Of a DNA stretch of 64,000 nucleotides, positions 5,259 through 54,940 are shown piece by piece. The notes beneath the pieces were generated by a model that ran no database searches, had not been told where the DNA came from, and saw nothing but the letters and a program-made list of their open reading frames with translations. The DNA comes from a virus (Duplodnaviria; Heunggongvirae; Uroviricota; Caudoviricetes), in the IMG/VR virus record IMGVR_UViG_3300025430_000014, positions 30,682 to 94,681 of that record, one strand, 5' to 3'. How positions within the stretch are numbered: position 1 is the first letter of the stretch; every line of letters starts with the position of its first letter. A program made the translations under genes and the position numbers.

Positions 5259-5372
5259 AGTAATAGGTATGTATGTAAAACAAAAAATGCACAGAGTGCA
5301 CTAATTGTAACAAAAGTAGTTAAAAAATCCATCTATCCAATGGGTGACAGCAAACTATGCTACATAATATAG

Positions 5373-8300
5373 CTATTCTTGTCTAGATTGGGTGGTTGTT
5401 TTTACACCCTCTGCTTTAGATATGTCAGGGAAGAAATAAGGAAGCCATTCGTTCTGTACCTGGTTTGCAGCAGGGAACATATCAACAAAATATTTTGTAG
5501 GATGGGTATGGTCCATAAGCTTTTGATCACCTATAGCTTCTGCATATCCTAATGTAGATGCTGCTTTAATAAACTTAGCAGCTTCTCCTAATATACCTAT
5601 AGCAGGAAGGAAAGATCCTTTTGCCATATTTTGGAATGAAAGAGGATTATAATAGAAAGCTAACCTATCTGAAAGTTTATTTGCAAGCTTTGCCCAGAAG
5701 TTATATTTATTCTTATCAGGATCATTTGATCCAGGAGCAGCTGCACCCACTGCAAATATAAGTCCCATAAGTCCTACTAATACACCTAGTTCTTTTGTTT
5801 GATTAACAAGCTCACGTCTCATTAAATCATAGAATTCTTCTTTTGTAATTTCTAGTTCCTTGCCTTGTTTCTTAAAATAATCATCTTTTTTCTGTTGTAA
5901 TATTTCATCCATTATCTTAAGCCCCTTATCTGTACCTGTCATAACATCTATCATTCTTGCTATTCCTGTAAGTCCTACATGAGCCCATGTCTTAAGGAAA
6001 GCTCTAGCTCTACCATATTCCCAACTTTCTGTTTCTAAATTTCTTTGTATATCACCAGTTCTAGTTTCTATACCTTTAGGAATCCAGTTTCTAAACATCA
6101 CAAAACTTCTCATCAATGTATCTCTTCTATATCCAGCTTTATCATCTTCACTCATTAGATCTCCCACCTTTCTACCAAAACTAGTAACCATTGTTCTATA
6201 TTTTGCTAATGCTTCATCAGAAACACCAGGGATTTCTATAGAATGATCTTTCACTTGAGCTATGTTAGTGAGTGATTCTTTTTCTTTTAATTCCTTCACT
6301 CTAGCTTCAAATGTTCTTTCTAAAGCTCTTCTCTCTTCTTGTGTTGCTTTATATTTTACAGCTCTATCTTGTGCACTCACATAGTCTCTAATGTTTACAA
6401 TCTTTCCATTTCTCACCATTGAGTTATCATTGAAAGCTAATGCATTTGTAATCTGAAGCTTTTTAGCAGCAAATGATGCAGTTGACATTAGAACATCATT
6501 AAATGACCAAGCTGCCATGTAATTATAAAGTCCTTGCTTAGATGCAATCTCTCTTCTTTTTTCTGTAGAAAGATCATCTGTAAGAGGAACTATTTCATTT
6601 AATAATAATTTCTGTGCAATAGAAAGTCCTCCTGGAATTACAGCCTTGATATGGTTTCTTTCCCAGTCTGCAAATGTATAGAACTGTCCACTATTAATAA
6701 ATCCTTGGAAGTGTGTACTTAAATAGTGAGGTGCTGCAACTAAAAGCTTTAATCCTACAGCTTGTGCTTGTATGAGTTTATTAGAGTTTCTTAATAGTTT
6801 TTGTGCAGATAGTTGTCTCTGTTCAGCAGTATCACTATCCTTGGCAAACTTTTCAGTGATGCTTTTTATACTAACATTACCTATGGAAGAAAGATTTTCC
6901 TTTAGTCCATATATACCATCATCAATAATTGTCTGTAGTATCTCAGCATTTTTATTACTACTGTAGTCAATCTTAGGAGCACCATTTTCAAATACAATAT
7001 TACCATTTTGATCCACCACCACATGTCCTTTATTTTTCTCAACATTATATAGTGTAAGAAGTGTATTCTCTATTTGTTTATTAGCTTCATATTCTATTAA
7101 TGCTTTAATCCAAAGAGTACCCACCTTATTAAGATCTGTAGATAATTGAGATATTGCTCTATCTGTACGAGTGAAAGGTTTAGGTATTTCTTTTCTAAGT
7201 GTATGAGTTTCTGGATCTAACTTAGAATAATCTCTTGCTTCACTAACTCTTACAGTGTATGCATCCTTAAACAAATCTTTTGCCTCAGCAAGTTTATCAC
7301 CTGAATTAGCTAGTCTTTGTAATGTAGATGCTTCTATTAATGGGAAGAAAGAACTTCCTTTATTAGATAGATAACCTGCAGCAATTCCTCTATTATTCAA
7401 TGCTGTTAGAAAATTCCACATATCTAAAGCATTCTTACTCTTAGACATTTCTACATACTCTTGAGAGAGATGTTTACTTTCTAACATGTTCTTTTTGAAC
7501 AAATCATTAAATTGCCATTCTCTATATCCATTGAATGATGTACGTGTAATATCTAAACTGTTCTTTAGTTTATTCTTTTGACCATCTCTTCTTTTCTCAT
7601 TCTGCTCATCATCTTGTGAAAACACTGTATCATCAATATCTTTAATTCCTTTATTAATAATATCAGTTGCTTGTTTCATGTAAGCATCTACATCCATATT
7701 ATCTAAAAAGAATTGCTTGTCTTTGTTAGTCTTTGCATTCTCACTATCCTCATAAAACTTTTTACTAATCTTCTTAATTAGTTCAATATTATTCTCACTA
7801 ACTTTACCCACCATACTAAAAGCAGATTTTCCACGAGCATCAGCTTCTTTTTGTAATGGAATAAGTATGTTACTAAAATCATCAATTAGTCTACTAGAAT
7901 GTATATTGATAATACTCTTAGAGTTCTGAACTAAATTAGAACCAAGCTTAACCAAGTTAGCAGGAAGTTTAGATCCTTCTTTAAATGTCCTAGTTAATCC
8001 ATCAACTTCTTTCTCTGCATCTAGAGCACTATATTTAGTATCTTCTGTTGTAAGTCCTTCTTTTAGAGCAAGTTGTACAACAAATTCTCTTTGTAGATCA
8101 TTGATTTTGGTCATCATCCTTTTTGTGGATTCACCTATTGCATCAAGTCTAGAAAGAGTGGCTTGGTCTTCTTTACTCATTCCTTCCTTAGGAAACTGTG
8201 ATAGGAATGTCTCACTTAAGGTTGTATATTTCTCAGCACTGTTTTTAATCTCTAATAAGTTTGCTAGCTTATTATTTATATCATCTTTAGATAACTTAGT

Positions 8301-10295
8301 GTAGTCTATGTTTTCAAAACTCTTAAATGTTTCACTAGCATCTTTTAAGAAGTTCACACCCACATTAGTTAATGGAGCAAAGTTTAGCTGCACTTGTAAA
8401 TGACGAGTGGCTTTAGAAAGTTCTTGCAGTCTTAGAAATTTCTTAAACTTATCTTCAGCAGCAGTGTCTGCTTTATAAAGTTTTTCATATTGAGCATTCA
8501 AAGAAGTTACAAGCTCATTTATTCTTTTGTTTCCTGTATTTTCTGTATTAATAGGAACAGGAAGTAAGTATGTTTTAGTTTCTTTTACATTATCAAACTT
8601 ACCCACCTCAATAGAAGATAGAAGTAGTTTGCTTTTATTATCACCTTTTATAGAGTTTCTATAGTTAGCAATAAATGGAACCATTCTAGCTCTTCTCAAC
8701 TGATTAGGTTTAATCCCATAGTTATATAAGATTTTAGAATACTCTCCCATTTGCTCTTTCCATTCTTTTTTCTTTAATGGTTGAATATCTTCATTAGTGG
8801 TTTTATCTAAATTTGAGAACTTCCAGTCATATATATCCACTTTAATGCCAGTGGTTACATCTGGTGCAATTGCAATTAAATCTATTGTAGAAGCTAGCAT
8901 ACCTTTCACCTTTTCATTCACCACCTTTCTTTCAACAAGAAATCTTGTACCTTCAGGATATGAACTTACTAAATCTTCTATATATGATCTTACACTTTTT
9001 TGTATAGTGGAATTTAATGGACTATTAATAGTTGTATTAGTAAACACAGGTTTACGATAACCATCTTTATCAATCAAGTCATTAATTATTACATTCTCTA
9101 TAAACCCATGTCCTTGCAATCCCCATTCTTGCATCTGACTATCTTGATTCTTTTGAAAGTCAGTACGTTCAATGTTATTCTTACCCTTTACTTTTTCAGT
9201 AACACTTAATGCGATTTTCTTAACACCATCAAGTAAATAATGTCTTTTATCTGTAGCAGTGGCAGGATTTAATACTAAACGATTATCCATACCTGAAACT
9301 TTATCATAAAAGTCATCCACTTGATCTTTATTCAAGCTAAGATATACACCATCTTCTTTAATATCAGATACAGTTCCTTTCACCTTACCAGCAGCTATAT
9401 CTTTAGCTGTCTTACTAAATATATCTACATTACTTTTATTATATAAGCCTTTGACAAAGTCTAATACAGAATCCCAAAGTCTTTGAGCTAAGTTTCTATT
9501 AGCCTTTTCCACTGTAGTGGGTTGTTCTGTATTTCCTTCTGTTTGATTTACAATATGTCTTGTAATCAATTGATCTACAGCTTCTTTCTTTATCTTACGA
9601 ATATTTGGTTTACCATCAGATAATTGGTATTCTGGTCTAGTGCTATATTTATCAAACACTTCTTTATATATCTGATATTTACCAATCTCACTAATCATCT
9701 TAGTCATTAACTGAGGAGCAGTTTGTTCTACAATAGCTGTAGCTATGTGAACTACTTCTTCTGTTAATGCTGCATTTTCTCTACCAACAGCAAGTGCTAC
9801 AACACCTCTAACAGTATCTGCAACACCATTCACTCCATCAATATCAAGTCCAGTTTCTTTAGCATATTTATTTAAATCCTGGAAATCAATACCCATTTGC
9901 TTTCCAGCCTCTTTCATTATATTAAGAGTTTCTTGAGAAGCCTTAGATCCATATTCATCATTTAACTGAAAGAATTCACCTCTCTGTTCTGCTGTATATC
10001 CACCTCTTTCCATCTCAGCTCTTTGTTCTGGAGAAAGTTCTGTGGATTTTCTATTATACACATCTAGATATTTCTGTGCTAGTTCATTAGAAGGGTCAAT
10101 GGTAAAAGATCCTTTTTCACCTTCTTTTATTACTATATCTTTAAAATCTCTATTAATTTTACTAATAGATGCAGATGACTTACTGGGGTTTGGAAAAAAG
10201 CCAGTGGTATCTGAAAGGATAGCACCATCTTTAGCAAGACTAATCTTTACTGAATCTGTTATATCTTTCTTAATATCTAATAAACATTTTGCCAT
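5373..10295 (-). CDS. Giant virion protein (1640 aa), largely alpha-helical, function unknown. Candidate ejected/cargo protein
   Basis: Complete ORF. Its ATG overlaps the stop of the upstream 3755-aa gene (TAATG at 10293-10297). It sits in the giant-gene block. Confidence 0.85.
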   Translation of the reverse strand: MAKCLLDIKKDITDSVKISLAKDGAILSDTTGFFPNPSKSSASISKINRDFKDIVIKEGEKGSFTIDPSNELAQKYLDVYNRKSTELSPEQRAEMERGGYTAEQRGEFFQLNDEYGSKASQETLNIMKEAGKQMGIDFQDLNKYAKETGLDIDGVNGVADTVRGVVALAVGRENAALTEEVVHIATAIVEQTAPQLMTKMISEIGKYQIYKEVFDKYSTRPEYQLSDGKPNIRKIKKEAVDQLITRHIVNQTEGNTEQPTTVEKANRNLAQRLWDSVLDFVKGLYNKSNVDIFSKTAKDIAAGKVKGTVSDIKEDGVYLSLNKDQVDDFYDKVSGMDNRLVLNPATATDKRHYLLDGVKKIALSVTEKVKGKNNIERTDFQKNQDSQMQEWGLQGHGFIENVIINDLIDKDGYRKPVFTNTTINSPLNSTIQKSVRSYIEDLVSSYPEGTRFLVERKVVNEKVKGMLASTIDLIAIAPDVTTGIKVDIYDWKFSNLDKTTNEDIQPLKKKEWKEQMGEYSKILYNYGIKPNQLRRARMVPFIANYRNSIKGDNKSKLLLSSIEVGKFDNVKETKTYLLPVPINTENTGNKRINELVTSLNAQYEKLYKADTAAEDKFKKFLRLQELSKATRHLQVQLNFAPLTNVGVNFLKDASETFKSFENIDYTKLSKDDINNKLANLLEIKNSAEKYTTLSETFLSQFPKEGMSKEDQATLSRLDAIGESTKRMMTKINDLQREFVVQLALKEGLTTEDTKYSALDAEKEVDGLTRTFKEGSKLPANLVKLGSNLVQNSKSIINIHSSRLIDDFSNILIPLQKEADARGKSAFSMVGKVSENNIELIKKISKKFYEDSENAKTNKDKQFFLDNMDVDAYMKQATDIINKGIKDIDDTVFSQDDEQNEKRRDGQKNKLKNSLDITRTSFNGYREWQFNDLFKKNMLESKHLSQEYVEMSKSKNALDMWNFLTALNNRGIAAGYLSNKGSSFFPLIEASTLQRLANSGDKLAEAKDLFKDAYTVRVSEARDYSKLDPETHTLRKEIPKPFTRTDRAISQLSTDLNKVGTLWIKALIEYEANKQIENTLLTLYNVEKNKGHVVVDQNGNIVFENGAPKIDYSSNKNAEILQTIIDDGIYGLKENLSSIGNVSIKSITEKFAKDSDTAEQRQLSAQKLLRNSNKLIQAQAVGLKLLVAAPHYLSTHFQGFINSGQFYTFADWERNHIKAVIPGGLSIAQKLLLNEIVPLTDDLSTEKRREIASKQGLYNYMAAWSFNDVLMSTASFAAKKLQITNALAFNDNSMVRNGKIVNIRDYVSAQDRAVKYKATQEERRALERTFEARVKELKEKESLTNIAQVKDHSIEIPGVSDEALAKYRTMVTSFGRKVGDLMSEDDKAGYRRDTLMRSFVMFRNWIPKGIETRTGDIQRNLETESWEYGRARAFLKTWAHVGLTGIARMIDVMTGTDKGLKIMDEILQQKKDDYFKKQGKELEITKEEFYDLMRRELVNQTKELGVLVGLMGLIFAVGAAAPGSNDPDKNKYNFWAKLANKLSDRLAFYYNPLSFQNMAKGSFLPAIGILGEAAKFIKAASTLGYAEAIGDQKLMDHTHPTKYFVDMFPAANQVQNEWLPYFFPDISKAEGVKTTTQSRQE

Positions 10296-13200
10296 TATCC
10301 GCAGTTATTTTCGTTATTATTTTCAATTGGAGGTAATCCTTCTGGTGTGATAGTTGTATCTACTTCTGATTGTGTAAATAGATCTTCATCTTCTAATAGA
10401 CCTTCTACATTTTGTATTCCACCAAAGTAAGCCATGATGTTTTCATTTGGTATAGTCTCATCAGATGTGATAAATCCATTATCTATTACAGACTTTCTTG
10501 GTGTAAGATAGAACTCATTAGCAAACTTACCATCACCCCAAGCATTAATTGCTTTGTAAATATAGTTCAATTTTCCATCACCTCTATCATATGAACCAAT
10601 TTTTTTGAACAGTCCTTTGTTTTTATAAGACAAATCTCCTTCTTTTCTCATCTTAACTTTCTCAGCTTGAGATATATTCTTTTCCCATGTATATACAAGA
10701 ACATCACTGTCTGATTCTTTAGATAGAGCACTGATTCTTAATAGCTGAGGAATATCACCAGCCTTCATAGCATTGTATACATCTGCATGAAATGCCATGT
10801 TTTCATTGTATGTACGCTCATTATATATAGGATCATATTTAGCCTTAGCTGACATATGAGGAACAACATCACTATAGTTCCAGAATGTTCTTTCAAATAC
10901 ATTTAGTTTCTCGAAATCTGGAAGAGTTGATAACTGTTCCAAATCTGATAATGTATCATTATACACTCTCTTAATATCTTCATAAGGAAGGAATGATGTA
11001 AATGATATATTAGAATCAGTAAGACCTGATTGTAATACAGATAGATTAACAAGTTTATTATATAAATCTTCTTTATCTTCCCCTTTCAAATATTCTTTTA
11101 ACTCTTGAAATGCATGTATCAATTGGTTTTGATCATACACTTTATTGTTCTTATTTCTAATTTGAATGTTATTAACCTCACCAGGAGCACCAAAATGTGG
11201 CTTTAAGATGTTAATCACCTGATTATTATATAAAGGATGACTAGCATCTTTTTTAACATTCTTAACAAAGTTCCAAACCTTCTTAGCTGTATTATCATCT
11301 CCTATTAACTGAGACTTAATTTTCTTATTCAATCCTTCATTAGTTTGAACAGCCCAGTCAAATAATGTAGCTACAGCTCTTTGAGAAGTTCTTACAAAGT
11401 CTCTATCATTCATATCTATATAAGGAGTGAGAACTTTTTCTAATATGTCTCTTGTTCTTCCTTGATCAGCTTTTAATATTGTAGATAGAGCATTTCTTAC
11501 ATCACTTATATTTTCCATTAACTTTCCAAGGAACGAATTCTTTAATAAAGAATCTGCAGAATTAAATATACTATCTCTAGCAGCATCCAATTGTTGCATT
11601 TTTCTGAACAATAAGAATGGATCATTGAATGAAGCTGTATCAAAGTTAGTACCTTGTGTAAGCTTAAACATATGTTCAGCCATCTTAGCATATTTCAAGA
11701 ACTCATTAAGAATAAATCTTTGCTCAGACTTATCCACCTTACTAAGATTAGTTTTTCCTACATTATCAAGTAGCTTTTCTTTAGAAGGCATTTTACTAGT
11801 GAAATATCCACTACTAACATATCTCTTCTGAACTTTATTAAGTATTGTTGTATTAAATAACCATGTATACCCATTCTTTTCTAACTCACGTAAGTAATCA
11901 CGAACAATTGGTTGGTTCATGAAATAAGCTGTTGTATCAATAGGTACTCCAATCTTAGTTAAGAACATCCATGTAGAGGCTACATTTGGTGTAGCACCTA
12001 ATTCCATAATCCATGGACCCTTAGATATATCCACATAACCATCAATAAATTGTCCAAGAATATCAGAGATGAATTCACCATCTGCATTCTTAATCATTGA
12101 TAATGTAGGTTTGCCATCTATTTGATTATACTTCTCAAACTTAATTTTACCATCTCCTAAGAACTTAGCATCTGCAGCACTTAATAATCCTTTCTTAGCA
12201 TTAAAATCTAGAACAATAGGAGATCTCTGATTTAAAGAATGATTTGTTTGGTTCACAGCTGCAATACCAATTGCATATTTACCAGTTACAAATGCATGTC
12301 TTAATGTAGACATAAATCTTCTACTCAACATGTTACCAGTGGATTCATAATCAAATGATCCAAGTCCCATTTTATCTACAATTGTTTTAGCTAAACCTTT
12401 TAATTGATCAGCTGAGTTAGGGGTCGTAAGTCTTTCAAAGTTTAAAGGATGGCTAATTAAATTCTGTAAAGATTGAATATAAGCATTCTCTAAATTTCCT
12501 TTACCTTCACCTTTTAAAGATAACATTCTAGGAACACCCCTTTCACTATCATCTACATTTTTTAAGTAGATAGATAGTTTATCTATATCAAAATCCGATC
12601 CAACCTTCTTCACTAAAGCAGAAGGGATTACCACAGAATCACCAAACTCTTCAGGAAGAAATCTAGCTATTTTAAATACATCAATTGAGTTCTGTTTCTG
12701 TGTAGGAATACGAAAAGCTACACCTTCTAATATACCAGAATCTTTTAATTCTTTAATAAGTTCTTCATCAGATAGATCTGACTTAAACCATCTACCCACC
12801 ATAATCTCACATGTGCGTTGACCATCCTTATCTTCATAGAACTTAAGAGTATCAGATGTATATGCATTCTTACCATTCACCTTTACAGCTTCCACCTTAT
12901 TAGATTCTAATAATGTAGAAGGAACTTGCACTTTCATACCACCATTAATCTTAGGACTAATTACTTCTCTATCAGCAATAGAATATAAAATGTTTCTAAT
13001 TTGTTGGTAAGCAGGAGTGGCTTCAATCACTACATCACCATCTTTAAATCCTTGTAATGCATCAATGATATTGTCATTAACTTCTCTTCTAGTTAACTCT
13101 CTTCTTAATGTATCAGCTAACTTATCAACATTAGTTAACTTATATCCTCCATCTACTTTCTCGATATTAAATGTTTTCAATAGTGAGTTAACACCACTTT

Positions 13201-21562: not shown

Positions 21563-21576
21563 CTTGAATTCTTTTT

Positions 21577-24099: not shown

Positions 24100-24185
24100 A
24101 TTAGTAGAATTAGCAAATGTAATTTAAAATATTATATATACCAAGAGAAATAACTATTCCGATTAATTTGGTATAATAAGATTGA

Positions 24186-27100: not shown

Positions 27101-27431
27101 CACCACTAGAAGATTTAGCATTAGCAGCATCCATAGCTGTTTGTCTAGCTGCATCTTCTTTCAATTGCTCATCGTATTGCTTTCTACTTATTCCTTGGTT
27201 TGTAGCATTTGCATTTGCTAACAAATCATTGAATCCCATACCATTCTGAGCTATAGGAGGATTACCAAAGTCTGTAAGTTGGTGTAACTGTGTGTTCACC
27301 ATCTTAGTACCCATTTCAGCTTTCTTTAAAGCTTTACCATGAGCTTTCATAAATGATTCTTCTGTAGGATATTTCTTGTAGAATTCCTTTTCAGATTTAA
27401 CTTTGGCGATCTTTAGTATTTGATCTTTCAT
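24186..27431 (-). CDS. Large Gly/Gln/Ala-rich virion protein (1081 aa). Candidate internal/ejection or tape-measure-like protein
   Basis: Complete ORF. Long Gly-rich low-complexity stretches (GGGTTPGGFNWGNLGTALGTATQGQGGLG). Confidence 0.75.
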   Translation of the reverse strand: MKDQILKIAKVKSEKEFYKKYPTEESFMKAHGKALKKAEMGTKMVNTQLHQLTDFGNPPIAQNGMGFNDLLANANATNQGISRKQYDEQLKEDAARQTAMDAANAKSSSGGIGSQIGSILGKMMPSGGGSSAPSLDFTTIDTAPSFQEGGELPIFQGGGTTPGGFNWGNLGTALGTATQGQGGLGSEFANIFGGKGTANKLTNVGPQGALGQGGAGFGAGSEAAGIGIVNAAPQILQGVQQIKQQKQNMLKADQAADISGLTLQAASGRKERVQNKYVRPEDQLLQPGQMGSPTGVGTNYLAQYGTRISGNPTQVQNTYAPNNLYGDLGYEPLEESNPKQYRRGGVLPQAEFGDYFQSSGQASIGSGVGSAIGSAFFGPVGGEVGKLVGTVAGNLLGGAKDANALKAKQAEAQTNAMRAAWASGAQGIQGQNASFMEDGGKTSPYEWNSHTWQPQLITKFGEHNLKDLLHPPHDADMLRSGGHLKEDYVNPSASALSTERGLMPIAEDGTQLAMGGDLQVHRGKAETLSYNPFLPHGGETIMFRGPSHDNGGMPVTYGDNGVEVEGGEPATKLQDGGSPTGSNLVVYGNMKIPQFGASEIGDKDSEGRKFKHYANDVALNDKKQNQIINKATDIVNSSKDNTVFDQLALNSGKAMMMGATAKQKANAAKLEAAARVQNAILDTAKEFGYEDSDKFNQDVMKGKVKNMAKLGASIPMAQNGIGIGEDYYLDHTGTQSAPQSDADAADARMQALGLGNQSFGNADLGNVAVASSKRGPAYPSLGYTNAPTTFTGATSPVAYPYPKEEDLPGLASPTKDKGTKKFDKKNAIATALASIYDFARPTNQMPLDTNQLMGEMYALGHNQVEPVKAQTYQPMLDTPYNISLQDQINSIDQQANAAIRGAGRNPAAQAQIMASAAEMKNKVLGEQFRANQAQKAQVYGKNRDLMNQAQLQNLNILDQQYVRQATAQSKTKEQNIAALNSISSKIAQNKLENLASGVEQNKYNFRFDPTTGKAYNVNSPATFNIPTAGEGTPSVDQVSSKPSTLADYEKAKAMVNQFESQLKKDTKPARNGAIVKALKTI

Positions 27432-27449
27432 ATCTTATGTTTGTATGAT

Positions 27450-30008
27450 TTATTTATATTTTTCTAACCAGCCACCTTTAGGTGTTTCAGTGACATAATC
27501 TCCATCAAATTTATATTTCTTTCCTGGTTTCATCAACTTTTTATCTCCAGTGTTACTTTCTCCTATAACATCATAATTCACTCCTTTCATTGTTATTTCA
27601 TTAGAAGGAATAATAGTAGTTTCACCTGGATGTGCCCATTGTCCCATAGGATCTATAATAGCTCCACCATGTTGATATTTATTATCAGTGGCAGCTTGAT
27701 CAGCAGCATATGCTCCTCCTGCCACCACTGGTGCAGTGGTTAAAAGTTTATTGATATTTTTAGACAGCACCTTAGTATTTTTCTCTATTTTATTAGGATC
27801 CATAATATCATACATTCGTAATGGATATTGTTCTCCCTCAGTATTTATATAGTCTTTATAATGACTTTTTATCATTTCAGGACTAATTGGATCATAAGGA
27901 TGACTGATTACTCCTTTGTTTAACATATCACTTCTTACCTCTTCTAACATTGCCATCTTTTCTTGACCACCACTTCCTTTTTCAAAATAATCTTTTGCGT
28001 CTTTTAAATAATCTTTTCCACCAAATATATTACTCTTAGAATAAGATGATACATCACCAGCATCTTTTAATTTCAAATTACGTAAGCTATAGTCAATGTT
28101 AGTTGGACTTGTATATTGTTGAAGATGACTAATTTCATGCTCTGCAATATTTTTAGCTTGTTCAGGAGAAAACCCTTCTCCTATAGAAATAACAGGACTT
28201 CTATTTGTAGTGGGTATTTCACTCGAAGGATACATTTGTTTATGAATAGCACCTGTTCCACCAAAAGGATCTACATCTTTTACAACTTCTGCTTTTTGTA
28301 AATCACCTAATAAAGATTCAGGAGTTACATTATATTTACTAAACTCTGTTAATGCTGGAGATCCTCTCCACCATTGTGTGTTAGCATTTACAAAATTCTT
28401 TAATCTAGATTGTCCTTCAGGAGTTTGTAATCTTGCTATTCTTTCATTCAATGCTTGCTTTACAACATCTATGTTTTTACTAGATCCAGAAGCTCCTGCT
28501 CCTGGAATACTTTCTTCTGATATTCCAGCAATTCTAGGTAATGCATTTTCTACACTTCCACTTCCTACAGCATATTTACCCAATGCTCCCAATCCTTCAC
28601 TTAAAGCTCCTACACCTTCAGCAGCTGCCATTGTGTTAAGAGCAAAGTTTCCTGCTTCAGCTATATTAGCTGCTGCTTTGCTAGAGGCTGCTCTATTAAG
28701 AGCACCTTCATTATAATTTCCACTTTCATCAACAGACCCACCATGTATATCTGCATATGCTTGGTTTCTAGCAGCTCTTGCAGCAGTATCTCCTTTTTTA
28801 TATACATCTTTAGAAAGAGTTGGTTGAGAAGCTATTTTATTAATTTCTTTTTGATTTTTAATATCTTGTTGTAATGCTAATCTTCTTTCTATATCAGATC
28901 TATTAAGAACTCCTGGAGAAGAGGATATATCACCTCTCATCATAGAGCCATTCTGACTAATAGTTTTAGGAGTCCAATCAAGACCTTCTTGATAGAACTT
29001 CATCTCTTGTCCATTCTGTGCAGAAGCTTTTGTCTTCTTTGCATATTTACCATTAGCTGGAGCAGAACCTGCTACTCTTCCATAACTAAATCCTACAGCA
29101 CCTGGCATGCTTCCACCCATTTGAAATTGTCCACCCCATGCAGGAGAATAGTTTCTTCCTTTTGTATTATATCCAAGTCCTACAAATCCAGGACCTGTAG
29201 AAGCAGAAGCATCATTATAATTACCATGTTTACCATAGTTATCATGTATCTTCTCTAGATTCATTCCATTCTTAGCCTTACTATTTCCTTTAGATTCTTT
29301 CTTTAACTCTTCAAACTTTTTAGTGGTGGCATCTGTCCATTGACCACCTGTACTATGTAAAGCTTTAAATGCTCTTGTCACTTTACTATGTGTAACTACA
29401 TCATCAGTCTTAGGAGCATTCTCAACAAAGTCAAAAGCTTTCTCCATTCTTTGTTTAAAGTTATCAAAAGACTCTCCACCTGGAATAGGAGTATTAGGAT
29501 GTTTTACCCAATCCTTTTCTTTAAAGCTTCCTTCAGGAGCTCCATCATATTCACCAATATCCCATGTTCTTAATAATGGATTAGTATACACTGGTAAGTT
29601 AGCAGTTTGTCCAATTACATTTGCTGTTTGTTTAGCTCTTTCTATATCACTAGTGATAACATTTTCTTTTCCTCTCTTTAATGCTTCTTTACCAATTCCT
29701 TCAGCATATTTAATTCCTTTCTTAGTTAGATCGGTGGGATTTACACCATTCTCTAATCTATCTGCAGTTGCTGTATCTTCACCATGTTCAAACACTTCTG
29801 TACCATCTACCTTCACTGGAGCAACCTTAGGTCCTTGTAATTCTCCACCTGAAGCAAACTTATCTAACCATCCTCCTTGTTTATAAGGTTTTGCACCACC
29901 AGCTATAGCACCAAAGAACTTTCTTTGCTGGTCTGTAATAGGATGTCCATGCACAGTTTTATCATGCAGGATTTCTTTAGCTTTATTTGATGTTAACTTT
30001 TTTGCCAT
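27450..30008 (-). CDS. Large virion protein (852 aa). The N-terminal region resembles the histidine-phosphatase (phosphoglycerate-mutase-like) fold but has EHGE where RHGE is expected. An HExxH motif (AEHEISHLQQ) lies in the C-terminal half
   Basis: VFEHGEDTATADRLENG ... ITSDIERAKQTANVIG ... VVTHSKV follows the RHGE / SxxxRAxQTA / H pattern of the family. HEISH is encoded at ~28125-28139. An HExxH can occur by chance in this much protein, so this is weak. Confidence 0.6.
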   Translation of the reverse strand: MAKKLTSNKAKEILHDKTVHGHPITDQQRKFFGAIAGGAKPYKQGGWLDKFASGGELQGPKVAPVKVDGTEVFEHGEDTATADRLENGVNPTDLTKKGIKYAEGIGKEALKRGKENVITSDIERAKQTANVIGQTANLPVYTNPLLRTWDIGEYDGAPEGSFKEKDWVKHPNTPIPGGESFDNFKQRMEKAFDFVENAPKTDDVVTHSKVTRAFKALHSTGGQWTDATTKKFEELKKESKGNSKAKNGMNLEKIHDNYGKHGNYNDASASTGPGFVGLGYNTKGRNYSPAWGGQFQMGGSMPGAVGFSYGRVAGSAPANGKYAKKTKASAQNGQEMKFYQEGLDWTPKTISQNGSMMRGDISSSPGVLNRSDIERRLALQQDIKNQKEINKIASQPTLSKDVYKKGDTAARAARNQAYADIHGGSVDESGNYNEGALNRAASSKAAANIAEAGNFALNTMAAAEGVGALSEGLGALGKYAVGSGSVENALPRIAGISEESIPGAGASGSSKNIDVVKQALNERIARLQTPEGQSRLKNFVNANTQWWRGSPALTEFSKYNVTPESLLGDLQKAEVVKDVDPFGGTGAIHKQMYPSSEIPTTNRSPVISIGEGFSPEQAKNIAEHEISHLQQYTSPTNIDYSLRNLKLKDAGDVSSYSKSNIFGGKDYLKDAKDYFEKGSGGQEKMAMLEEVRSDMLNKGVISHPYDPISPEMIKSHYKDYINTEGEQYPLRMYDIMDPNKIEKNTKVLSKNINKLLTTAPVVAGGAYAADQAATDNKYQHGGAIIDPMGQWAHPGETTIIPSNEITMKGVNYDVIGESNTGDKKLMKPGKKYKFDGDYVTETPKGGWLEKYK

Positions 30009-30874
30009 TATTTGTAAGAGATTTGATCTTCTGCAACAATAAACTGACTAACTAAATGAGCTGTAGAAGTGTTATCTAGAATATGTCTCACCTTTAAACT
30101 TTTTGATCTAATAGGTTCTTTCCTAAAGCTTCTCTTTCCATAATCCATATTAGCTTGATTAAGCACCTTATCTATAGACATTGATTCACAGGTAGTTATG
30201 AACAAAGGTACGTTTTTATCTCTAACAAGTCCCCAGAATGTATTATATTGATAGAAGTTATCACTCTTAGTATATGTAATAGTTTTACTGTAAGTGTTAT
30301 ATATAGGATAGTTTAAATAGCTCTGTAGGTTATTTATGGGTTTAGGAACTAATTCAAGTAGTCCTGAAGTTTGTTGACCATTGTATAGAATAGCTTTATT
30401 AAACCATTGGTCATCTGTTTCTATTCTGTTTGTTGTACTATACACTCCTTCTGTACTAGGGAAATATCTATAGGCCTTAGTGAAATCTTTTACACTTTGT
30501 AATATCTCATCATAAGATTGGAATGAGAATGGATATTCTATAATATAAGGCTCTATGTTTCCATAGTAGTTGTTATATAAAGTGATGTTAGTTAAATGTC
30601 TCCAAAGAGATGCAGTGTTACAAGGAGTGAATGTAATAGCTGCTATTTGATCTACATTAAGACTTTCAATAGACATTTCTATTATAGTCTGACATTTACC
30701 AACAGATTGTAAAACAATAATATTCACTGAGTCACTTACAGACACACTGTACCCATCTATAAGGTCATCCTTAGAGATGTTGGTACCAAGAACATTTCCT
30801 AGATCATCATAGACATCAAAAGGACCAGTTCTATAGCCAGCACAAGTTAATTTTACTATTATTGTTTTAGACAT
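30008..30874 (-). CDS. Structural protein (288 aa from ATG 30874; the track ORF starts at GTG 30913). Its N-terminal GPF module is shared with the 39419..39937 protein
   Basis: MSKTIIVKLTCAGYRTGPFDVYDDLGNVLGTNISKDDLIDGYSVSV aligns with MYTVTITFTLAGTDVGPFNLYSDADGYTTPFATGISRTALLAGYTSTV. The upstream gene ends at 30894, leaving 19 nt. Confidence 0.7.
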   Translation of the reverse strand: MSKTIIVKLTCAGYRTGPFDVYDDLGNVLGTNISKDDLIDGYSVSVSDSVNIIVLQSVGKCQTIIEMSIESLNVDQIAAITFTPCNTASLWRHLTNITLYNNYYGNIEPYIIEYPFSFQSYDEILQSVKDFTKAYRYFPSTEGVYSTTNRIETDDQWFNKAILYNGQQTSGLLELVPKPINNLQSYLNYPIYNTYSKTITYTKSDNFYQYNTFWGLVRDKNVPLFITTCESMSIDKVLNQANMDYGKRSFRKEPIRSKSLKVRHILDNTSTAHLVSQFIVAEDQISYK

Positions 30875-30893
30875 CTTTAAATTATATTTTAGA

Positions 30894-33800
30894 TCAAATT
30901 GAACACTCAACACCTTTTAATAACAATGCAGCATCACCACCATATGGTGAATTATTAATTGCACAAATTGCACTATTTACATCTATAGTTTGATTAGAGA
31001 AAACAGTTCCATTACAATCTGTATAGTTTACACCAAGTAGTGGATTAGCAGTTTCATTAGTATAAGTGTAACATACTGTAGGAGGAGTTGTTGTTGTTGT
31101 GGTTGTAGTGGTAGTAGTGCATTCAACACATACAGCAGTTCCTGCTGCTGCACAACTATCTGATATAAATACAGCACCCCCTGCTACAGCACAGTTTGAT
31201 ATAGTGGTAGTTGTAGTAGTGGTAGTTGGTGTAGGTATTTCATTTATAGCTACAGCTTGTAAATTACATCCTTCATTTAATCCAGAATAAAAGAATGTTT
31301 GATCTGTTACATAGAAGTTTGGAAGATAGCTATGGAAGCTCACCCAGCTCTTACTATTGAAATTAAATGAAATAGTGAAGCTCTTATTACAGAAGTATTG
31401 TCTATCTGTAAGCTGTACCACCTTTCTTAATGTAGTGGATCCATAAGTCTTATTTACATAAAACTCTTGTGTAGATGAATCATATTGTACACCACTATTG
31501 CTAAGAGGAATATAATCAAGCTTTGTAATAATCACTCTATCATACTTGGCATCATATACACCATGTAGTCCTAATCCATTATAATGATTATCTGTGTTTA
31601 CTGTAGGGAAGTAGTTGAGAATTTGGAATGGTAAGTAGTTTGAAAAGAACCTATTCATTCCAGATCCAAATGCAGCCATGTCTGTAGGCATATATCTACC
31701 ATACATACTTAGACTAATTAGAAATATTTGACCTCTTTTAGCATCTACAGATATTTGTCCTTCAGGTATTTTTATCAGAAGTTTATTCTGAGTACCCATA
31801 TATCCTATATCTGTTTCAGCAAAATCTTGTGGAGGAGCAGATTTAAATAATTGATCATTACCTAAATAAGCAGCTTGAGGATTACTTGTATTAATTGTAA
31901 GTAGAGAGTTATATACAAATCCTTTGTTCTCAAATCTAGCCAATATCCCTTTGTTCTGAATACCATCTAATGCTACAAGCTTACCATAATTCTCAGGGAA
32001 GTCAAAGAAAGATACTGGTCTATATATCAACCAGTTATTCACTCTATTATCTACATAGCTTTGTTGAGGATCAGAATAGATTGCTCTAAATGGAAAATTA
32101 GTATAACATTGATCATCAGTCCAGTTTATAGGCAAGTGGGAGAAATAGTTCTCTTTATTCTGCTTAGAAAAAGTTACATTATATGTATATGTATTATCAA
32201 AAGCAATTGGTACAAATGCTTGTTGTAACCAGTTATCAGGAATACCTGTGCTTACATGTGGATAAAAGTCTCCTTCTTGATTATTAAATGCTTGACGTAA
32301 GTCTACATTAATAGAAGACTCTGTATAATAGTAAGGAATACCATATGCAAATAAATACATCTTACCAGTGTAAGTGGCATTTAATGGAGCAGATGTTACA
32401 TTACCATTAGGAGAAGCTGTAGTGGAACTTGTTGTTGTAGTGGTTCCTTGTAATACTGTACCTCCAGTGGAGCAATCAAAGTTATGAGCTTTAATTGATA
32501 TGATATTATTAAGTAGTACGTTATTAGGGGTGGTCCAGTTGTACAAGATAGATCTAGCAGAGTGCCAGTATTGTGGAAATGCTACATTACCAATCTCATC
32601 ATAAAATATATCACTATCATCAGGAGCATTCACTCTATTATCTATAAAGAAAGGAAGCTTTGTTTTAAATGCAAATCTACCAATGAATGTATCTCCACCA
32701 AATATCATTCCTGGATCAGATGCAGGAAGTGCTTTGAATATTCTTTGGAATCCTGTATCAATTGTTGTATATGAATACATTTCTCCCCATTGATCAGGAG
32801 ATATCACCTTTATAGATCCATAATAAGAAACAACATCAATTGGATTTAAAAACTCTGGAGTATCACAATGTCCACTTTGAGAAAGTGTAAACCTAGATGA
32901 ATCAGAAATTAAACTTCCATTATTACCAATTAAAGATGGAGTGGCATTAGGAAAAGGAAGACTATCAACATATAAAGAATTTCTTGTGTCTATAGTTTTC
33001 ATATAAACAGAAGATTCTCTTTGATAATTATTTACATTCCATACATCTCCTACAGATTCAACACCAGGAATAAGATATTGACATATGTCAAGTTCTCTTT
33101 GTTTAATACCTAGATTATTATCTATATCAGAAGAGTAGTCATAGGTAGCTACAGAGTTAAAAGAATAAGCATAGTTTTGTCTACTGATACCGTTTATATA
33201 TATTTGTATATATGCTTGATATGCAGTAAACATTGCTGTTGCATTAAATCCTCCTAAGTTAGCAATAGCATAACTTGAAACTAATGCAGCCAATTGAGCA
33301 TCTCTAGTAAGAAGTTTATATTGTGCATTATTCTTCACTGGTACAAAATGAGCTTGTCCAGCACCATACATTACATTCTCTAACTTAAGAACAGTTCCTA
33401 ATGTAGGTTGTCCAAAAGAAGTTTCAGGAGAATTAAATACCATTCTATATTTAGAATCAGCTTGAAACCCATCTAATTGAGAAGGATAACATGCAACATT
33501 CTTATCACTTTCTAAAATACTATATTTACTTGATCCACCTACACGAACAGGTATAGTAGATGAGTTTAATGTTTGAGGATCAATAGCATACACTCTAGCA
33601 ACTTGTAATGTTGTTGTATTTGGATCAGTGTATTGAAAATCTGTATAATTAACAGTTCCATCAACATATGAAGTTAATACAAATGATATAGATGTAACAT
33701 TAGTGATTGTTGCTGTTCCAGACAATACCACTGGATAACTAATAGAACACACTTGTGTTAAAGTGGTTGGCATATCTACAGTGATTAAAACTCCATCATT

Positions 33801-35735
33801 ACAATCATTATATTGTATTGTGCCAGGTGTTGTTACTACTAATTTATAGGTTTGACACTGTTGATTAAATGCATTGTTCTGTGTAAGAAGGAATGGATCT
33901 GGATCAAGGTCATTATAAGGATAGTTTGGATAGTAGTAATAAGTTGGTGAAGGATTGTTTAATGTATTACTATCTCTTGTATACTTACCTACATTTCTTA
34001 ATATACCTTTACCTATAATAGATCTATTAGTTGATCTATCTCCTCTAACTATTTTAAATCCAATAATCTGAGCTTTTTGTTCTGCTGTAAGATTAGATGC
34101 AGTGATTAATTCTGTGATTTGTTCTGGATCTATCTTAACACCAATAGGATATACAGCATCTGCTGTTTGCATTTCTACTTGATACTTATTATTAATAATA
34201 ATAGGATTGGCACTTTCAAATGCAGGACTCACTAATATATCAGGAAACTTATGATGTCTTATATGTTGACCAGCAAGATCTCCCCAAACTAATGTATCAC
34301 AAGGATAAGTATCTATTGATTCCCAATATGCAAACTCACCATATTGATACGGAGTGGCATTACCAATATTAGGACCTGTAGCATCACCTAATACAGAAGC
34401 TGTATTATATATTTGCCAATAAGGTGCACTAGTTCCATTACCAATAAAGTCAGGATTTGTACTAGGTACATCTGGTTGGGAGAACTCATTATAGTTCTTT
34501 GCTCTACCAGGAATATGAAAACCATCTGTTTGCTTGCCATTATCTAATAGAAATACTATCTCAAAAGGATATATCTCATCTCTAAGATAACCTCTTAAGT
34601 TAGTAGCATTGAATGGATCTGCATAATTCTCTGTAGCAGGAATTCTATAGGTTTCCCATAATAGAGTGATCTGACTAGCAATAGACTGATAATTAATCTT
34701 ATCTATAGATGTAAGATTGTCCCATATAAGTATATCTCTTGCAGTGGTTAAATCTTGTGCAATATCGTAGTATGGAAACTTTTCAAATATATCATCAAGT
34801 GTAAGAGGAATAGAAGTTACGTTCTGTCCTGTATAGGTTATTTGTTTTGTTGTATTATCAATAAAATAAGTACCTACTAATTCAACAGAGGTAATATCAT
34901 TTATTGTTTTTATTACAGCTATGTTATAATATTGAAAGTATCCTGTAACATCTATATTACTGATATCCAATACAATAGACTTACTCACTGGATAATTAAA
35001 ATCAGGAGTGGTTAATTGTGGATTAGCAATTGGTGTAGGATTAGTTATAGAGTAGTAAGATGTATAAGGATCTCCAAAAGCTGTACCATATTGTATTGCA
35101 AATTGGTATGTACCAGCAAGTAAATTACCACCATTAACAACACTATTTACAGAGAGTTCTGGAATAGCAAAGTTAGGTTGTACCTTTAATTTGTTGCAAT
35201 CAACAACTCCTGTATCAGGAGTGTTTTCACAAATAGTTTCTCCTGGGATTGTTACCCAAGGTGGATTTTGTAAGTCTATAAATCTTCTAGGATTATATCC
35301 ATCTGTCCAATAAACTTCTGTTGTACAGTTGGTAATTTTGTGTACAGCTTTGAGAATTGGATAGTTTATATTAAAATTAAGACAAGGAGCATTAATGTAT
35401 GTAACATAATTACAATCATTATTTACCATATATCCTATTTCACAATCTCCTGTTTCAGGATGTGTTAGAAAGAATACATGTTTATTTTGTTCTGGAATAA
35501 AATGCTCTCCAAGAACATGATAATTTGCAGGGAAGTTTAGACATAACTCATTACCTGGCTCATTCTGATAGTTAACAGAAGCTGAGTCATAGTTTTCTAA
35601 AGCAGCATTTAGTGCATAAGTGAGACTACCTTTCTCTATCTGGTTCACAGATAGATCCATGTTTAATCCTTTTCTACCTAGATTAAACTCACTTCTAACA
35701 TTACCTTGTTGTGATTGTTGTTCTTGTTCAGCCAT
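30894..35735 (-). CDS. Giant virion protein (1613 aa) with C-terminal poly-Thr linkers (TTTTTTTTISNC...TTTTTTTTTTTPPTV). Candidate tail/muzzle/baseplate protein
   Basis: Complete ORF, ATG at 35735. The poly-Thr runs are encoded at ~31080-31250. Confidence 0.8.
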   Translation of the reverse strand: MAEQEQQSQQGNVRSEFNLGRKGLNMDLSVNQIEKGSLTYALNAALENYDSASVNYQNEPGNELCLNFPANYHVLGEHFIPEQNKHVFFLTHPETGDCEIGYMVNNDCNYVTYINAPCLNFNINYPILKAVHKITNCTTEVYWTDGYNPRRFIDLQNPPWVTIPGETICENTPDTGVVDCNKLKVQPNFAIPELSVNSVVNGGNLLAGTYQFAIQYGTAFGDPYTSYYSITNPTPIANPQLTTPDFNYPVSKSIVLDISNIDVTGYFQYYNIAVIKTINDITSVELVGTYFIDNTTKQITYTGQNVTSIPLTLDDIFEKFPYYDIAQDLTTARDILIWDNLTSIDKINYQSIASQITLLWETYRIPATENYADPFNATNLRGYLRDEIYPFEIVFLLDNGKQTDGFHIPGRAKNYNEFSQPDVPSTNPDFIGNGTSAPYWQIYNTASVLGDATGPNIGNATPYQYGEFAYWESIDTYPCDTLVWGDLAGQHIRHHKFPDILVSPAFESANPIIINNKYQVEMQTADAVYPIGVKIDPEQITELITASNLTAEQKAQIIGFKIVRGDRSTNRSIIGKGILRNVGKYTRDSNTLNNPSPTYYYYPNYPYNDLDPDPFLLTQNNAFNQQCQTYKLVVTTPGTIQYNDCNDGVLITVDMPTTLTQVCSISYPVVLSGTATITNVTSISFVLTSYVDGTVNYTDFQYTDPNTTTLQVARVYAIDPQTLNSSTIPVRVGGSSKYSILESDKNVACYPSQLDGFQADSKYRMVFNSPETSFGQPTLGTVLKLENVMYGAGQAHFVPVKNNAQYKLLTRDAQLAALVSSYAIANLGGFNATAMFTAYQAYIQIYINGISRQNYAYSFNSVATYDYSSDIDNNLGIKQRELDICQYLIPGVESVGDVWNVNNYQRESSVYMKTIDTRNSLYVDSLPFPNATPSLIGNNGSLISDSSRFTLSQSGHCDTPEFLNPIDVVSYYGSIKVISPDQWGEMYSYTTIDTGFQRIFKALPASDPGMIFGGDTFIGRFAFKTKLPFFIDNRVNAPDDSDIFYDEIGNVAFPQYWHSARSILYNWTTPNNVLLNNIISIKAHNFDCSTGGTVLQGTTTTTSSTTASPNGNVTSAPLNATYTGKMYLFAYGIPYYYTESSINVDLRQAFNNQEGDFYPHVSTGIPDNWLQQAFVPIAFDNTYTYNVTFSKQNKENYFSHLPINWTDDQCYTNFPFRAIYSDPQQSYVDNRVNNWLIYRPVSFFDFPENYGKLVALDGIQNKGILARFENKGFVYNSLLTINTSNPQAAYLGNDQLFKSAPPQDFAETDIGYMGTQNKLLIKIPEGQISVDAKRGQIFLISLSMYGRYMPTDMAAFGSGMNRFFSNYLPFQILNYFPTVNTDNHYNGLGLHGVYDAKYDRVIITKLDYIPLSNSGVQYDSSTQEFYVNKTYGSTTLRKVVQLTDRQYFCNKSFTISFNFNSKSWVSFHSYLPNFYVTDQTFFYSGLNEGCNLQAVAINEIPTPTTTTTTTTISNCAVAGGAVFISDSCAAAGTAVCVECTTTTTTTTTTTPPTVCYTYTNETANPLLGVNYTDCNGTVFSNQTIDVNSAICAINNSPYGGDAALLLKGVECSI

Positions 35736-54939: not shown

Positions 54940-54940
54940 T

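Follow-up and report, generated by a model that had tools for sequence, protein, structure and literature searches.

A crassvirus-type muzzle and predicted ejected-cargo gene module with a virion RNA polymerase fusion in an uncultured crAss-like phage

Gene content of the block

The subject of this study is a run of giant genes in a stretch of 64,000 nucleotides (nt) from a tailed virus of the class Caudoviricetes (IMG/VR record IMGVR_UViG_3300025430_000014, positions 30,682 to 94,681), hereafter the window. Between positions 5373 and 35735 of the window, 99.7% of the DNA is coding, and the minus strand carries open reading frames (ORFs) of 1613, 852, 1081, 840, 3755 and 1640 amino acids (aa); in 100 shuffles of the same block the longest open frame reached 167 codons (mean 123). 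An earlier sequence-only reading had taken these six ORFs for the whole block and, by analogy with crAss-like phages, for a muzzle protein followed by cargo proteins ejected into the host. Their lengths and shared orientation are as that reading gave them, but the block holds seven genes, since a 288-aa gene between the 1613-aa and 852-aa ORFs had been overlooked. The tight coupling by TAATG overlaps described there holds at two junctions, from the 288-aa to the 852-aa gene (30008) and from the 3755-aa to the 1640-aa gene (10295), whereas the remaining junctions are gaps of 14-86 nt without such an overlap.

Along the minus strand, the block opens with the 1613-aa ORF (30894-35735), assigned to the main chain of the tail-tip muzzle protein, and the 288-aa gene (30008-30874, from an ATG), which corresponds to a detached C-terminal part of the muzzle. 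These are followed by five genes for predicted cargo proteins: the 852-aa ORF (27450-30008), a mosaic protein of the "polyvalent" type in which short conserved modules flank two enzyme-like cassettes; the 1081-aa ORF (24186-27431), rich in Gly and Ala; the 840-aa ORF (21577-24099), conserved, constant in size and mostly alpha-helical; the 3755-aa ORF (10295-21562), which joins a gp47/gp67-like RNA polymerase (RNAP)-associated part and a degenerate zincin to a virion RNA polymerase; and the 1640-aa ORF (5373-10295), an RNAP-associated protein of the gp49/gp65 family. We consider it very likely that the block is a crassvirus-type muzzle with its packed and ejected cargo module, including the virion RNA polymerase.

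The muzzle assignment, previously made by analogy, is borne out by two lines of evidence. The 1613-aa protein matches the Pfam family crAss_MUZ (PF25731; E 6.4e-37, 127.7 bits against a cut-off of 27) over three stretches, and it is encoded directly after Ring_1, in a run behind the CrAss_Ring_2 and CrAss_Ring_1 genes. It also matches phrog_37948 (2.7e-94) and the N-terminal part of phrog_15100, both PHROG "virion structural protein" families, aligns at 33% identity with the 1654-aa muzzle counterpart in Leptolyngbya phage Lbo-JY46 (its residues 30-1457), and is paired by hhalign with residues 966-1151 of gp44 of Bacteroides phage crAss001 at 63% probability. Upstream on the same strand lie genes for the large terminase (TerL), the portal, the major head protein (MCP), a tail-fibre-like protein, Ring_2 and Ring_1; the order TerL, portal, MCP, Ring_2, Ring_1, muzzle, cargo is canonical for crassviruses. 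At least four independent assemblies (ENA, JGI), and IMG/VR as well, contain the same phage, with proteins that are 97-100% identical, and the gene order is kept in about 25 IMG/VR relatives with 55-63% muzzle identity and likewise in a diverged ENA contig.

A virion RNA polymerase fused to its associated protein

The 3755-aa protein combines sequences that are encoded separately in other phages. Its residues 85-781 align with residues 67-678 of gp67 of Cellulophaga phage phi14:2 (E 2e-13), and a hydrophobic helix near the N-terminus occupies the same place in all three proteins concerned (residues 117-135 in the 3755-aa protein, 172-190 in gp67 and 106-124 in crAss001 gp47). Residues 1593-1722 (16397-16786, minus strand) align with residues 2097-2218 of crAss001 gp47, the C-terminal zincin-like region of that protein (1.5e-10). 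Here the motif HEVFE (16613-16627) takes the place of HEAFH in gp47, and an intact HExxH is absent; YHEVFEAVWKMF is kept in relatives at 62-83% identity. The virion RNA polymerase region follows at residues 2447-3560 (10883-14224, minus strand) and matches phi14:2 gp66 (BLASTP E 7e-19 over a 577-residue alignment, with further downstream segments), and residues 2508-3226 match crAss001 gp50. The catalytic GSDFDIDK, at about residues 2987-2994, is identical in gp66; its DFDID comprises residues 2990-2994 (12581-12595). The RNAP signature noticed in the sequence-only reading thus falls within a long alignment to a known virion polymerase.

On these alignments the 3755-aa ORF is a gp47/gp67-like RNAP-associated protein fused to a virion RNA polymerase of the gp66/gp50 type. 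The fusion is kept in the relatives L036 and L037, the DFDID motif is conserved in relatives, and the protein is collinear with gp054 (2967 aa), itself a fusion of gp47-like and RNAP sequences, and gp053 of the uncultured crAss-like phage cr108_1 (NC_055878, Steigviridae, Pipoluvirus; 3e-28 and 4e-16). Orthologues of gp65, gp66 and gp67 occur in virions and are fused into one polyprotein in some phages (10.1101/2020.03.07.982082). Given these fusions and the collinearity with cr108_1 gp054, the arrangement in the window is not unprecedented.

A fusion of this size raises the question of whether it works as one chain. An alternative, to which we assign a serious but minority chance, is that the ORF encodes a polyprotein from which a gp47/gp67-like protein and a separate polymerase are released by cleavage, either before ejection or after it. 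Such processing of fused gp65-gp66-gp67 polyproteins is expected in the literature (10.1101/2020.03.07.982082), phi14:2 and crAss001 encode the two halves separately, and in the 3755-aa protein the zincin-like region sits between them. This internal zincin, however, reads HEVFE instead of HExxH, and does so conservedly; the virion RNA polymerase of N4 is packaged unprocessed despite its zincin domain (PMC5512222); and no cleavage site is identifiable from the sequence of the 3755-aa protein.

Two further observations concern relatives of the fusion. In cr108_1 (L038), gp054 stops where the alignment reaches the first Asp of DFDID, and the polymerase resumes in gp053 after a gap of 290 nt (28409-28700 of NC_055878). 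The break in the gene thus falls at the active site, whether it is an intron, an intein remnant or a real split. Other relatives of the 3755-aa protein reach 4100-5200 aa, among them P0387 (4953 aa), P0447 (5181 aa), P0397 (4125 aa), P0419 (4138 aa) and a 4124-aa gene product on the diverged ENA contig. Several of these giants carry an appended histidine-phosphatase domain, with the motif variants EHSE, EHAE and RHGE.

The 1640-aa protein is placed in the gp49/gp65 family through an intermediate. Its best match in an annotated phage is cr108_1 gp052 (BLASTP 1e-15 and 1e-9), which in turn matches crAss001 gp49 (1e-12 and 5e-11), a protein found in virions by mass spectrometry (PMC10172136); the link to gp49 is therefore transitive. 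A single hydrophobic helix lies 112-137 residues from the C-terminus in the 1640-aa protein (residues 1503-1521; 5733-5789), in phi14:2 gp65 and in crAss001 gp49, as well as in cr108_1 gp052. The 1640-aa protein has 436 homologues. An HExxH motif is absent from it, whereas gp65 has HEIMH at residue 245.

A mosaic carrier protein behind the muzzle

The 852-aa protein had been described as composite from its letters. Its two enzyme-like domains are confirmed, and the protein proves to be one member of a large mosaic family of 1259 homologues, which range from 366 to 1479 aa. Members share only GGWLxKY, SPAWGGQF, KASAQNG and a stretch of about 60 residues (GQWAHPGE...ITMxGV), and the regions between these modules are freely replaced. 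Both enzyme-like regions of the 852-aa protein are insertions between conserved modules; the relative L008 (424 aa, 84% identity) does without residues 358-781. Pfam searches of ten IMG/VR and 47 database homologues returned only SLT (2) and Peptidase_M78 (1). Elsewhere in the family, cassettes of SLT lytic transglycosylase, ART-PolyVal or extra HExxH type occur, and ART and His_Phos cassettes are also found on homologues of the 1640-aa protein and on RNAP polyproteins. SLT and ART-PolyVal are typical domains of injected proteins, which favours the cargo reading.

Two of the shared modules deserve closer description. The module at residues 776-843 (27480-27683, minus strand), a putative virion-docking anchor, is nearly invariant across 111 homologues and corresponds to the N-terminus of the post-muzzle gene product in Lbo-JY46 (hhalign 98.5%) and in phi17:2 (gp41; 79%). 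The counterpart of this gene in phi4:1, gp040, is a virion protein verified by tandem mass spectrometry (MS/MS). The motif GGWL(D/N)KY lies at most 10 residues from the C-terminus in 99 of 120 homologues (P0001-P0120); 60 have it close to the N-terminus, and many have it between cassettes. Its role could be that of a recombination joint, a cleavage site or a docking peptide. In crAss001 gp45, GGWL occurs at residues 155 and 427, the latter at the start of the portal-bound domain, which may be a coincidence.

The second enzyme-like cassette, at residues of about 560-760 (27729-28331, minus strand), resembles a metallopeptidase of the zincin fold. The HExxH site reported earlier is HEISH at residues 624-628 (28125-28139), and the surrounding region is modelled as a zincin: a helix, a three-stranded sheet, the HExxH helix and a Glu helix, an arrangement that matches known zincins in structure. 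Among 20 homologues H624, E625 and E683 are invariant, and H628 and E690 are at least 90% conserved. A Foldseek search of the model against the PDB returned nothing below E 0.1, and the 852-aa protein gave no Pfam peptidase match at E <= 0.1 and no match to Pfam MPTase-PolyVal. With a His_Phos and a zincin domain in one protein, encoded between the muzzle and RNAP genes, the 852-aa protein has the make-up of a polyvalent protein.

A conserved non-canonical histidine-phosphatase domain

The first enzyme-like cassette of the 852-aa protein (residues 56-250; 29259-29843, minus strand) belongs to the histidine-phosphatase superfamily, in a variant that we call the "EHGED" type. It matches PF00300 (E 1.6e-20, 74.1 bits against a cut-off of 21.7) and the structures of CobC/PhoE (2e-7 to 6e-5). 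The pocket of a histidine phosphatase is formed by a nucleophilic His, a second Arg and a second His, and an acidic Glu serves as proton donor. In the alignment with CobC/PhoE, H75, R124 (in SDIERAKQTA) and H207 (in THSKVTRAF) are retained; E74 stands in place of the Arg of RHG, and T148 in place of the acid Glu (of the L-x-E...G-x-W-E-G segment). Neither the RHG motif nor the acidic donor of branch 1 is therefore present. The sequence-only reading had already seen a histidine-phosphatase-like N-terminus with EHGE (residues 74-77) for RHGE, and both the family and the Glu at the Arg position stand.

The altered motif is shared by the relatives. Wherever the motif region is present, in 22 cassette-bearing homologues, it reads EHGE; H75, R124 and H207 are invariant and T148 is conserved. 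Proteins that differ elsewhere are 64-78% identical over this domain. This identity, together with the presence of EHGE throughout, indicates conservation of the motif rather than decay. An exhaustive HMMER search with the domain recovered 2237 relatives, the closest of which lie inside giant proteins of 1700-5181 aa and mostly carry EHGE or another non-Arg variant; in 146 matched stretches that were scanned, EHG occurred in 27 and RHG in 48. The domain is found at the C-terminus of some RNAP polyproteins resembling the 3755-aa protein and at the N-terminus of some homologues of the 1640-aa protein, and further members of the 1640-aa family carry canonical RHG versions or ART-PolyVal. Being carried by mosaic proteins, RNAP polyproteins and gp49-like proteins, it is thus a recurrent passenger on all three classes of predicted ejected carrier. 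The IMG/VR relatives that were scanned have no recognisable histidine-phosphatase domain.

One homologue in the 1640-aa family, P0175, has at residues of about 110-300 a canonical RHGQ insert in which the C-terminal half (…FDFGSLEG…VTHNSV…) seems to stand ahead of the RHG half. Its sequence suggests a permuted or duplicated domain.

Our literature searches turned up no paper on histidine phosphatase or phosphoglycerate mutase in connection with crAss-like phages, and the word "phosphatase" does not occur in the paper on polyvalent proteins (PMC5512222). What the two cassettes do may be read in two ways. According to the first, which we hold to be plausible though on the doubtful side, neither is a host-directed effector: the zincin of the 852-aa protein would only process phage proteins (the mosaic protein itself or the 3755-aa fusion), either during maturation or once they have been ejected, and the EHGE domain would be a dead structural or binding module. 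E74 and T148 in place of the catalytic Arg and Glu speak for this, as do the autoprocessing proposed for the zincin (MPTase) domains of polyvalent proteins (PMC5512222) and the expected cleavage of crAss-like RNAP polyproteins (10.1101/2020.03.07.982082); since the own zincin of the 3755-aa fusion is degenerate, a peptidase acting in trans would be useful. However, the histidine-phosphatase domain is under strong purifying selection, keeping its identity amid shuffling and its His, Arg and His residues invariant, and its recurrence on three carrier classes suits a portable function. The close relative L008 does without the zincin cassette, which argues that this peptidase is not essential for maturation.

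The second reading, which we put forward tentatively and regard as rather unlikely as it stands, is that the "EHGED" domain represents a class of phage-injected effector or pseudoenzyme, of which we found no description, that moves as a cassette between mosaic, RNAP-polyprotein and gp49-like carriers. Its chemistry would be changed by the Arg->Glu and Glu->Thr swaps, and the GGWLxKY-type modules on either side of the cassettes would serve as recombination joints or as cleavage or docking sites. If this were true, the targets of the domain during the first minutes after infection could be, for instance, host phospho-signalling, immune signals derived from nucleotides or the ends of nascent RNA.

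A muzzle encoded by two genes

The 288-aa gene lies behind the main muzzle chain and accounts for the missing end of the protein. It matches positions 1588-1781 of phrog_15100, that is, the last 194 of 1783, and residues 1461-1654 of the single-chain muzzle of Lbo-JY46 (BLASTP 3.5e-22; hhalign 99%). Its frame is open from a GTG at 30913 (301 aa), and its own ATG at 30874 stands 20 nt past the upstream stop. The gene is called in the independent assemblies, and it is a separate ORF in all of the roughly 25 relatives, in which it is parted from the main chain by up to about 500 nt or by inserted small genes. The muzzle is accordingly not one polypeptide in this clade, its C-terminal 190 residues or so being encoded by a gene of their own.

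A single muzzle gene with a programmed +1 frameshift, or an assembly error, would also account for two ORFs that, with the GTG taken as the start, share 20 nt in different frames and that are jointly collinear with single-chain muzzle proteins. We judge this very improbable, as the identical split recurs in at least four independent assemblies, the 288-aa gene has an ATG of its own behind the stop of the 1613-aa ORF, and the two ORFs lie apart in the relatives. The gaps and inserted genes seen there indicate that the muzzle split is a genuine gene split in this lineage.

The 1081-aa and 840-aa proteins

The 1081-aa protein, which had been noticed as Gly-rich, contains 11.6% Gly and 11.7% Ala, with a glycine-zipper stretch at residues 350-400 (26232-26384). 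Syntenic homologues are present in all relatives. The C-terminal region of the family aligns with a 484-aa protein of Lbo-JY46 (hhalign 92%), and a weak alignment (hhalign only 46.6%) connects the family with the predicted transmembrane segment of crAss001 gp45, where a comparable glycine zipper is found. The 1081-aa protein is a possible counterpart of the crAss001 cargo protein C1 (gp45), which we offer as a lead rather than as a result. No Pfam family was found for the protein, and the family profile matched nothing in the PDB.

The most conserved stretch of the 1081-aa protein is found at residues 516-570 (25722-25886), where more than a dozen residues are invariant across 15 relatives (MGG..Q...G.AET.SYNP.LP.GGET.MFRG.SHDNGG.P..YG...VEVEGGEP). 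It matches no Pfam or PDB family and could be a catalytic or metal-binding site.

The 840-aa family counts 2204 matches, of which the best 120 are mostly of about 815-895 aa, and it lacks a Pfam domain. The N-terminal 360 residues or so align with the syntenic protein of Lbo-JY46 (hhalign 99.5%) and with phi17:2 gp40 (95-96%), and the counterpart in phi4:1, gp039, bears a virion-protein annotation based on MS/MS. Structure prediction of each giant protein had been suggested as a check: it gave a zincin for the HExxH region of the 852-aa protein, as described above, and the AlphaFold2 (AF2) model of the 840-aa protein (pLDDT 79.9) is mostly helical and without an informative fold match. This helical make-up agrees with that of the crAss001 cargo proteins (PMC10172136).

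One database source names an 840-aa homologue "Ca2+-binding EF-hand superfamily protein". We place no trust in an EF-hand at residues of about 167-221 (23437-23601), where the family profile weakly matches the EF-hand pair of calmodulin in the PDB (best 5e-5), because the loop lacks the acid at position 12 and the AF2 model places a beta-hairpin there.

Neighbouring genes and genome context

Two tail-barrel ring genes flank the block on its upstream side, Ring_1 (35743-36774, minus strand), directly ahead of the muzzle, and Ring_2 (37257-37988, minus strand), with a 158-aa ORF called between them on the same strand. The ring families PF24228 and PF25702 match the ring proteins in assemblies of the same phage, and a match to phrog_9863 ("virion structural protein") belongs to the same context. 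Just upstream of Ring_2, among tail genes, a 416-aa protein (37988-39238, minus strand) matches phrog_704, "DNA repair exonuclease" (1e-43); its gene has the same location in the independent assemblies L002-L004, as it does in the diverged ENA contig.

The block had been placed at the distal end of the structural operon, yet the giant genes continue past position 5373. Another frame on the minus strand stays open from 5300 to 3, with its first ATG at 5258, and encodes an eighth giant ORF of at least 1752 aa (3-5258, past the window edge), which was absent from the ORF list since the frame leaves the window. The product is made of 19.8% Gly, 22.5% Ser and 14.4% Thr and matches Pfam Collagen (8.5e-77), with four long G-X-Y tracts broken by globular segments and a non-repetitive C-terminal region of about 600 aa; it is probably a fibre. 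This ORF explains the higher GC content (0.40-0.42) at 2-6 kb. Reassignment of a stop codon as the cause of the ORF-poor left end was rejected, as the region is one long standard-code ORF that leaves the window. The 1640-aa gene, whose stop is at 5373, is followed by a terminator-like hairpin with a T-run (5286-5302, minus strand), which precedes the ATG of the collagen-like ORF; this ORF may form a separate transcription unit. The genes downstream of the 1640-aa homologue vary between relatives (548, 645, 886 and >1177 aa in L036; 1163 aa in L037).

At the other side of the window, no ORF of at least 150 aa was found at 54342-60587 under any stop-codon reassignment tested. The GC and AT skews switch sign at about 56-58 kb and plus-strand genes begin at 60587; the late operon and the genome's other arm probably meet here in a divergent junction. 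Within the block, the GC skew is about 0 over the muzzle gene (30000-36000) compared with -0.15 to -0.23 over the cargo genes (6000-30000), a change that parallels that from a Thr/Asn/Tyr-rich muzzle to Lys/Glu/Ala-rich helical cargo proteins. The window holds neither tRNA genes nor Rfam families.

Among cultured phages, pairwise TerL identities place the phage nearest to Lbo-JY46 (39.8%; unclassified), followed by Cellulophaga phages phi4:1/phi17:2 (32%; Lightbulbvirus), crAssE-Sib (27.6%; epsilon crAss-like) and Crassvirales (about 26-27%). The set of Lbo-JY46, phi4:1 and phi17:2 leads in the muzzle comparison as well, and the best matches of the polymerase module fall within Crassvirales. 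A megablast of 20 kb against 50,697 phage records found no match at the DNA level. We consider the source to be, with good probability, an uncultured, environmental crAss-like podophage, and the block to be a distal part of its late (virion) operon.

Likenesses to known systems

A close counterpart is crAss001, whose proteins gp45, gp46, gp47, gp49 and gp50 were identified in virions and are taken, in the model proposed for that phage, to be ejected cargo (PMC10172136). Its genes gp43-gp50 comprise ring genes, the muzzle gp44, C1 (gp45), C2 (gp46) and the RNAP-associated gp47, gp49 and gp50, and the window follows the same order. Both share the muzzle Pfam family, gp47-, gp50- and transitively gp49-like sequences, and hydrophobic helices in like positions. 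In contrast to crAss001, the window splits the muzzle into two genes, has three mid-size cargo genes where crAss001 has two (and with no significant similarity to gp45/gp46), fuses the gp47-like and gp50-like proteins in one ORF, and has HEVFE for the HEAFH of gp47. Furthermore, gp49 and gp50 of crAss001 are on the other strand, whereas the genes of the window are all co-oriented.

The likeness to gp65-gp67 of phi14:2 consists in the GSDFDIDK of gp66, the gp67-like N-terminus and a last gene product of about 1400-1600 aa with a C-terminal hydrophobic helix. Unlike in phi14:2, the gp67-like and gp66-like parts are fused, and the HExxH is found in the 852-aa rather than in the 1640-aa protein. 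Phage cr108_1 resembles the window in its own fusion and in gp052; it differs in a polymerase gene that stops at the catalytic motif and continues in the next gene, and in gp056/gp055, which are clearly gp45/gp46-like, whereas the corresponding proteins of the window are not.

Lbo-JY46 and phi4:1/phi17:2 offer the best TerL and muzzle matches and carry homologues of the 840-aa family and of the anchor module in order; a homologue of the 1081-aa C-terminus is found in Lbo-JY46 only. In these phages, however, the muzzle is a single chain, the giant downstream proteins show no similarity to the 3755-aa and 1640-aa proteins at the BLAST level, and a histidine-phosphatase cassette was not seen. A literature search returned no paper that mentions Lbo-JY46.

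More distant parallels are also instructive. The polyvalent proteins of phages and conjugative elements are multi-domain proteins, encoded among virion genes and predicted to be packaged and injected, with a zincin-like peptidase as their commonest domain (PMC5512222); the 852-aa protein differs from them in a zincin that does not match MPTase-PolyVal and in a GGWLxKY-type scaffold specific to this phage group. The internal proteins of N4 (gp51, gp52 and the virion RNA polymerase) and of T7 (gp14, gp15 and gp16), which leave ahead of the DNA and span the envelope, serve as a working analogy, and one of the N4 proteins is a giant polymerase that contains an HExxH domain. Similarity to either set, in sequence or in fold, was not detected, and the polymerase of the window is of the two-barrel and not of the T7-like type.

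A predicted ejection module and its alternatives

Plainly present in the block are its ORFs, their homologies, domain make-up, synteny and conservation. Modelled on crAss001, phi14:2, phi4:1 and N4, the products of 5373-30008 would be packed in the capsid and tail barrel and would leave through the muzzle before the DNA. The short modules of the 852-aa protein probably dock inside the tail barrel or portal, and its variable cassettes would be delivered into the host, there to act on the host or on the cargo of the phage itself. The glycine zipper of the 1081-aa protein likely inserts into a membrane and helps to build an ejection channel, so that the glycine-zipper and hydrophobic-helix proteins together would help to bridge the envelope; the 840-aa protein would be a conserved helical ejection protein. 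After ejection, the two-barrel virion RNA polymerase in the 3755-aa fusion is predicted to transcribe early genes, and the fusion and its 1640-aa partner of the gp49/gp65 family would together start early transcription. Packaging, ejection through the tail, its order, channel formation and early transcription are all carried over from crAss001, phi14:2 and phi4:1 by analogy.

Several points weigh against this interpretation. The virion association of the proteins of this phage is argued from homology. In sequence searches of the PDB, neither the 1613-, 3755- and 1640-aa proteins nor the isolated polymerase region retrieved anything, not even phi14:2 gp66, which pairwise BLASTP finds. The direct similarity of the 1640-aa protein to gp49 and gp65 is not significant (BLASTP 0.008; hhalign 20% for gp49 and 2% for gp65), and PHROGs holds no family for the 1081-, 840-, 3755- or 1640-aa proteins. 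The 1081-aa and 840-aa proteins lack significant similarity to crAss001 gp45/gp46 and phi14:2 gp68/gp69, and their equivalence to C1 and C2 is therefore unproven; in hhalign comparisons of the 1081-, 840- and 1640-aa families with the single sequences of crAss001 gp45/46/49 and phi14:2 gp65/68/69 nothing was significant, and none of the 852-, 840- and 1081-aa proteins matched crAss001 gp46. Finally, with two canonical catalytic residues lost, the histidine-phosphatase domain may have no enzymatic role.

That the block is instead an intracellular transcription or replication module beside the structural genes, not associated with the virion, could draw on packaging being argued here from homologues and on the lack of characterised domains in the 1081-, 840- and 1640-aa proteins, but it is extremely improbable, as the block follows the ring and muzzle genes closely and in one orientation and its homologues in phi14:2, phi4:1 and crAss001 were all found in virions. 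The interpretation as a muzzle with ejected cargo, which the sequence-only reading had reached by analogy, has held in each respect that homology could test: the muzzle, the RNAP, the transitive link to gp49, the 840-aa protein, and the anchor module and two cassettes of the 852-aa protein, with virion association predicted from the homologues. Its remark that most of the proteins have no recognisable motifs was too pessimistic.

Implications

The muzzle-cargo-polymerase module was already understood in outline from crAss001 and phi14:2, and the block of the window mainly extends it to an abundant environmental lineage, each cargo family of which has hundreds to thousands of metagenomic homologues. 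To this the window contributes the split muzzle, which offers a natural domain boundary for structural work, the gp47-RNAP fusion (also found in cr108_1), a third mid-size cargo gene, and chiefly a cassette-swapping carrier with a conserved non-canonical histidine-phosphatase domain.

Altogether, the post-muzzle protein appears as a highly recombinogenic carrier whose payload differs between close relatives, be it zincin, SLT, ART or histidine-phosphatase-like. Such swapping of payloads is the pattern expected at an arms-race interface, and it makes this position in the genome a source of candidate early anti-host or anti-defence activities. The histidine-phosphatase domain, conserved with two catalytic residues lost and recurring in giant proteins of predicted virion type, presents a cheap and concrete biochemical target.

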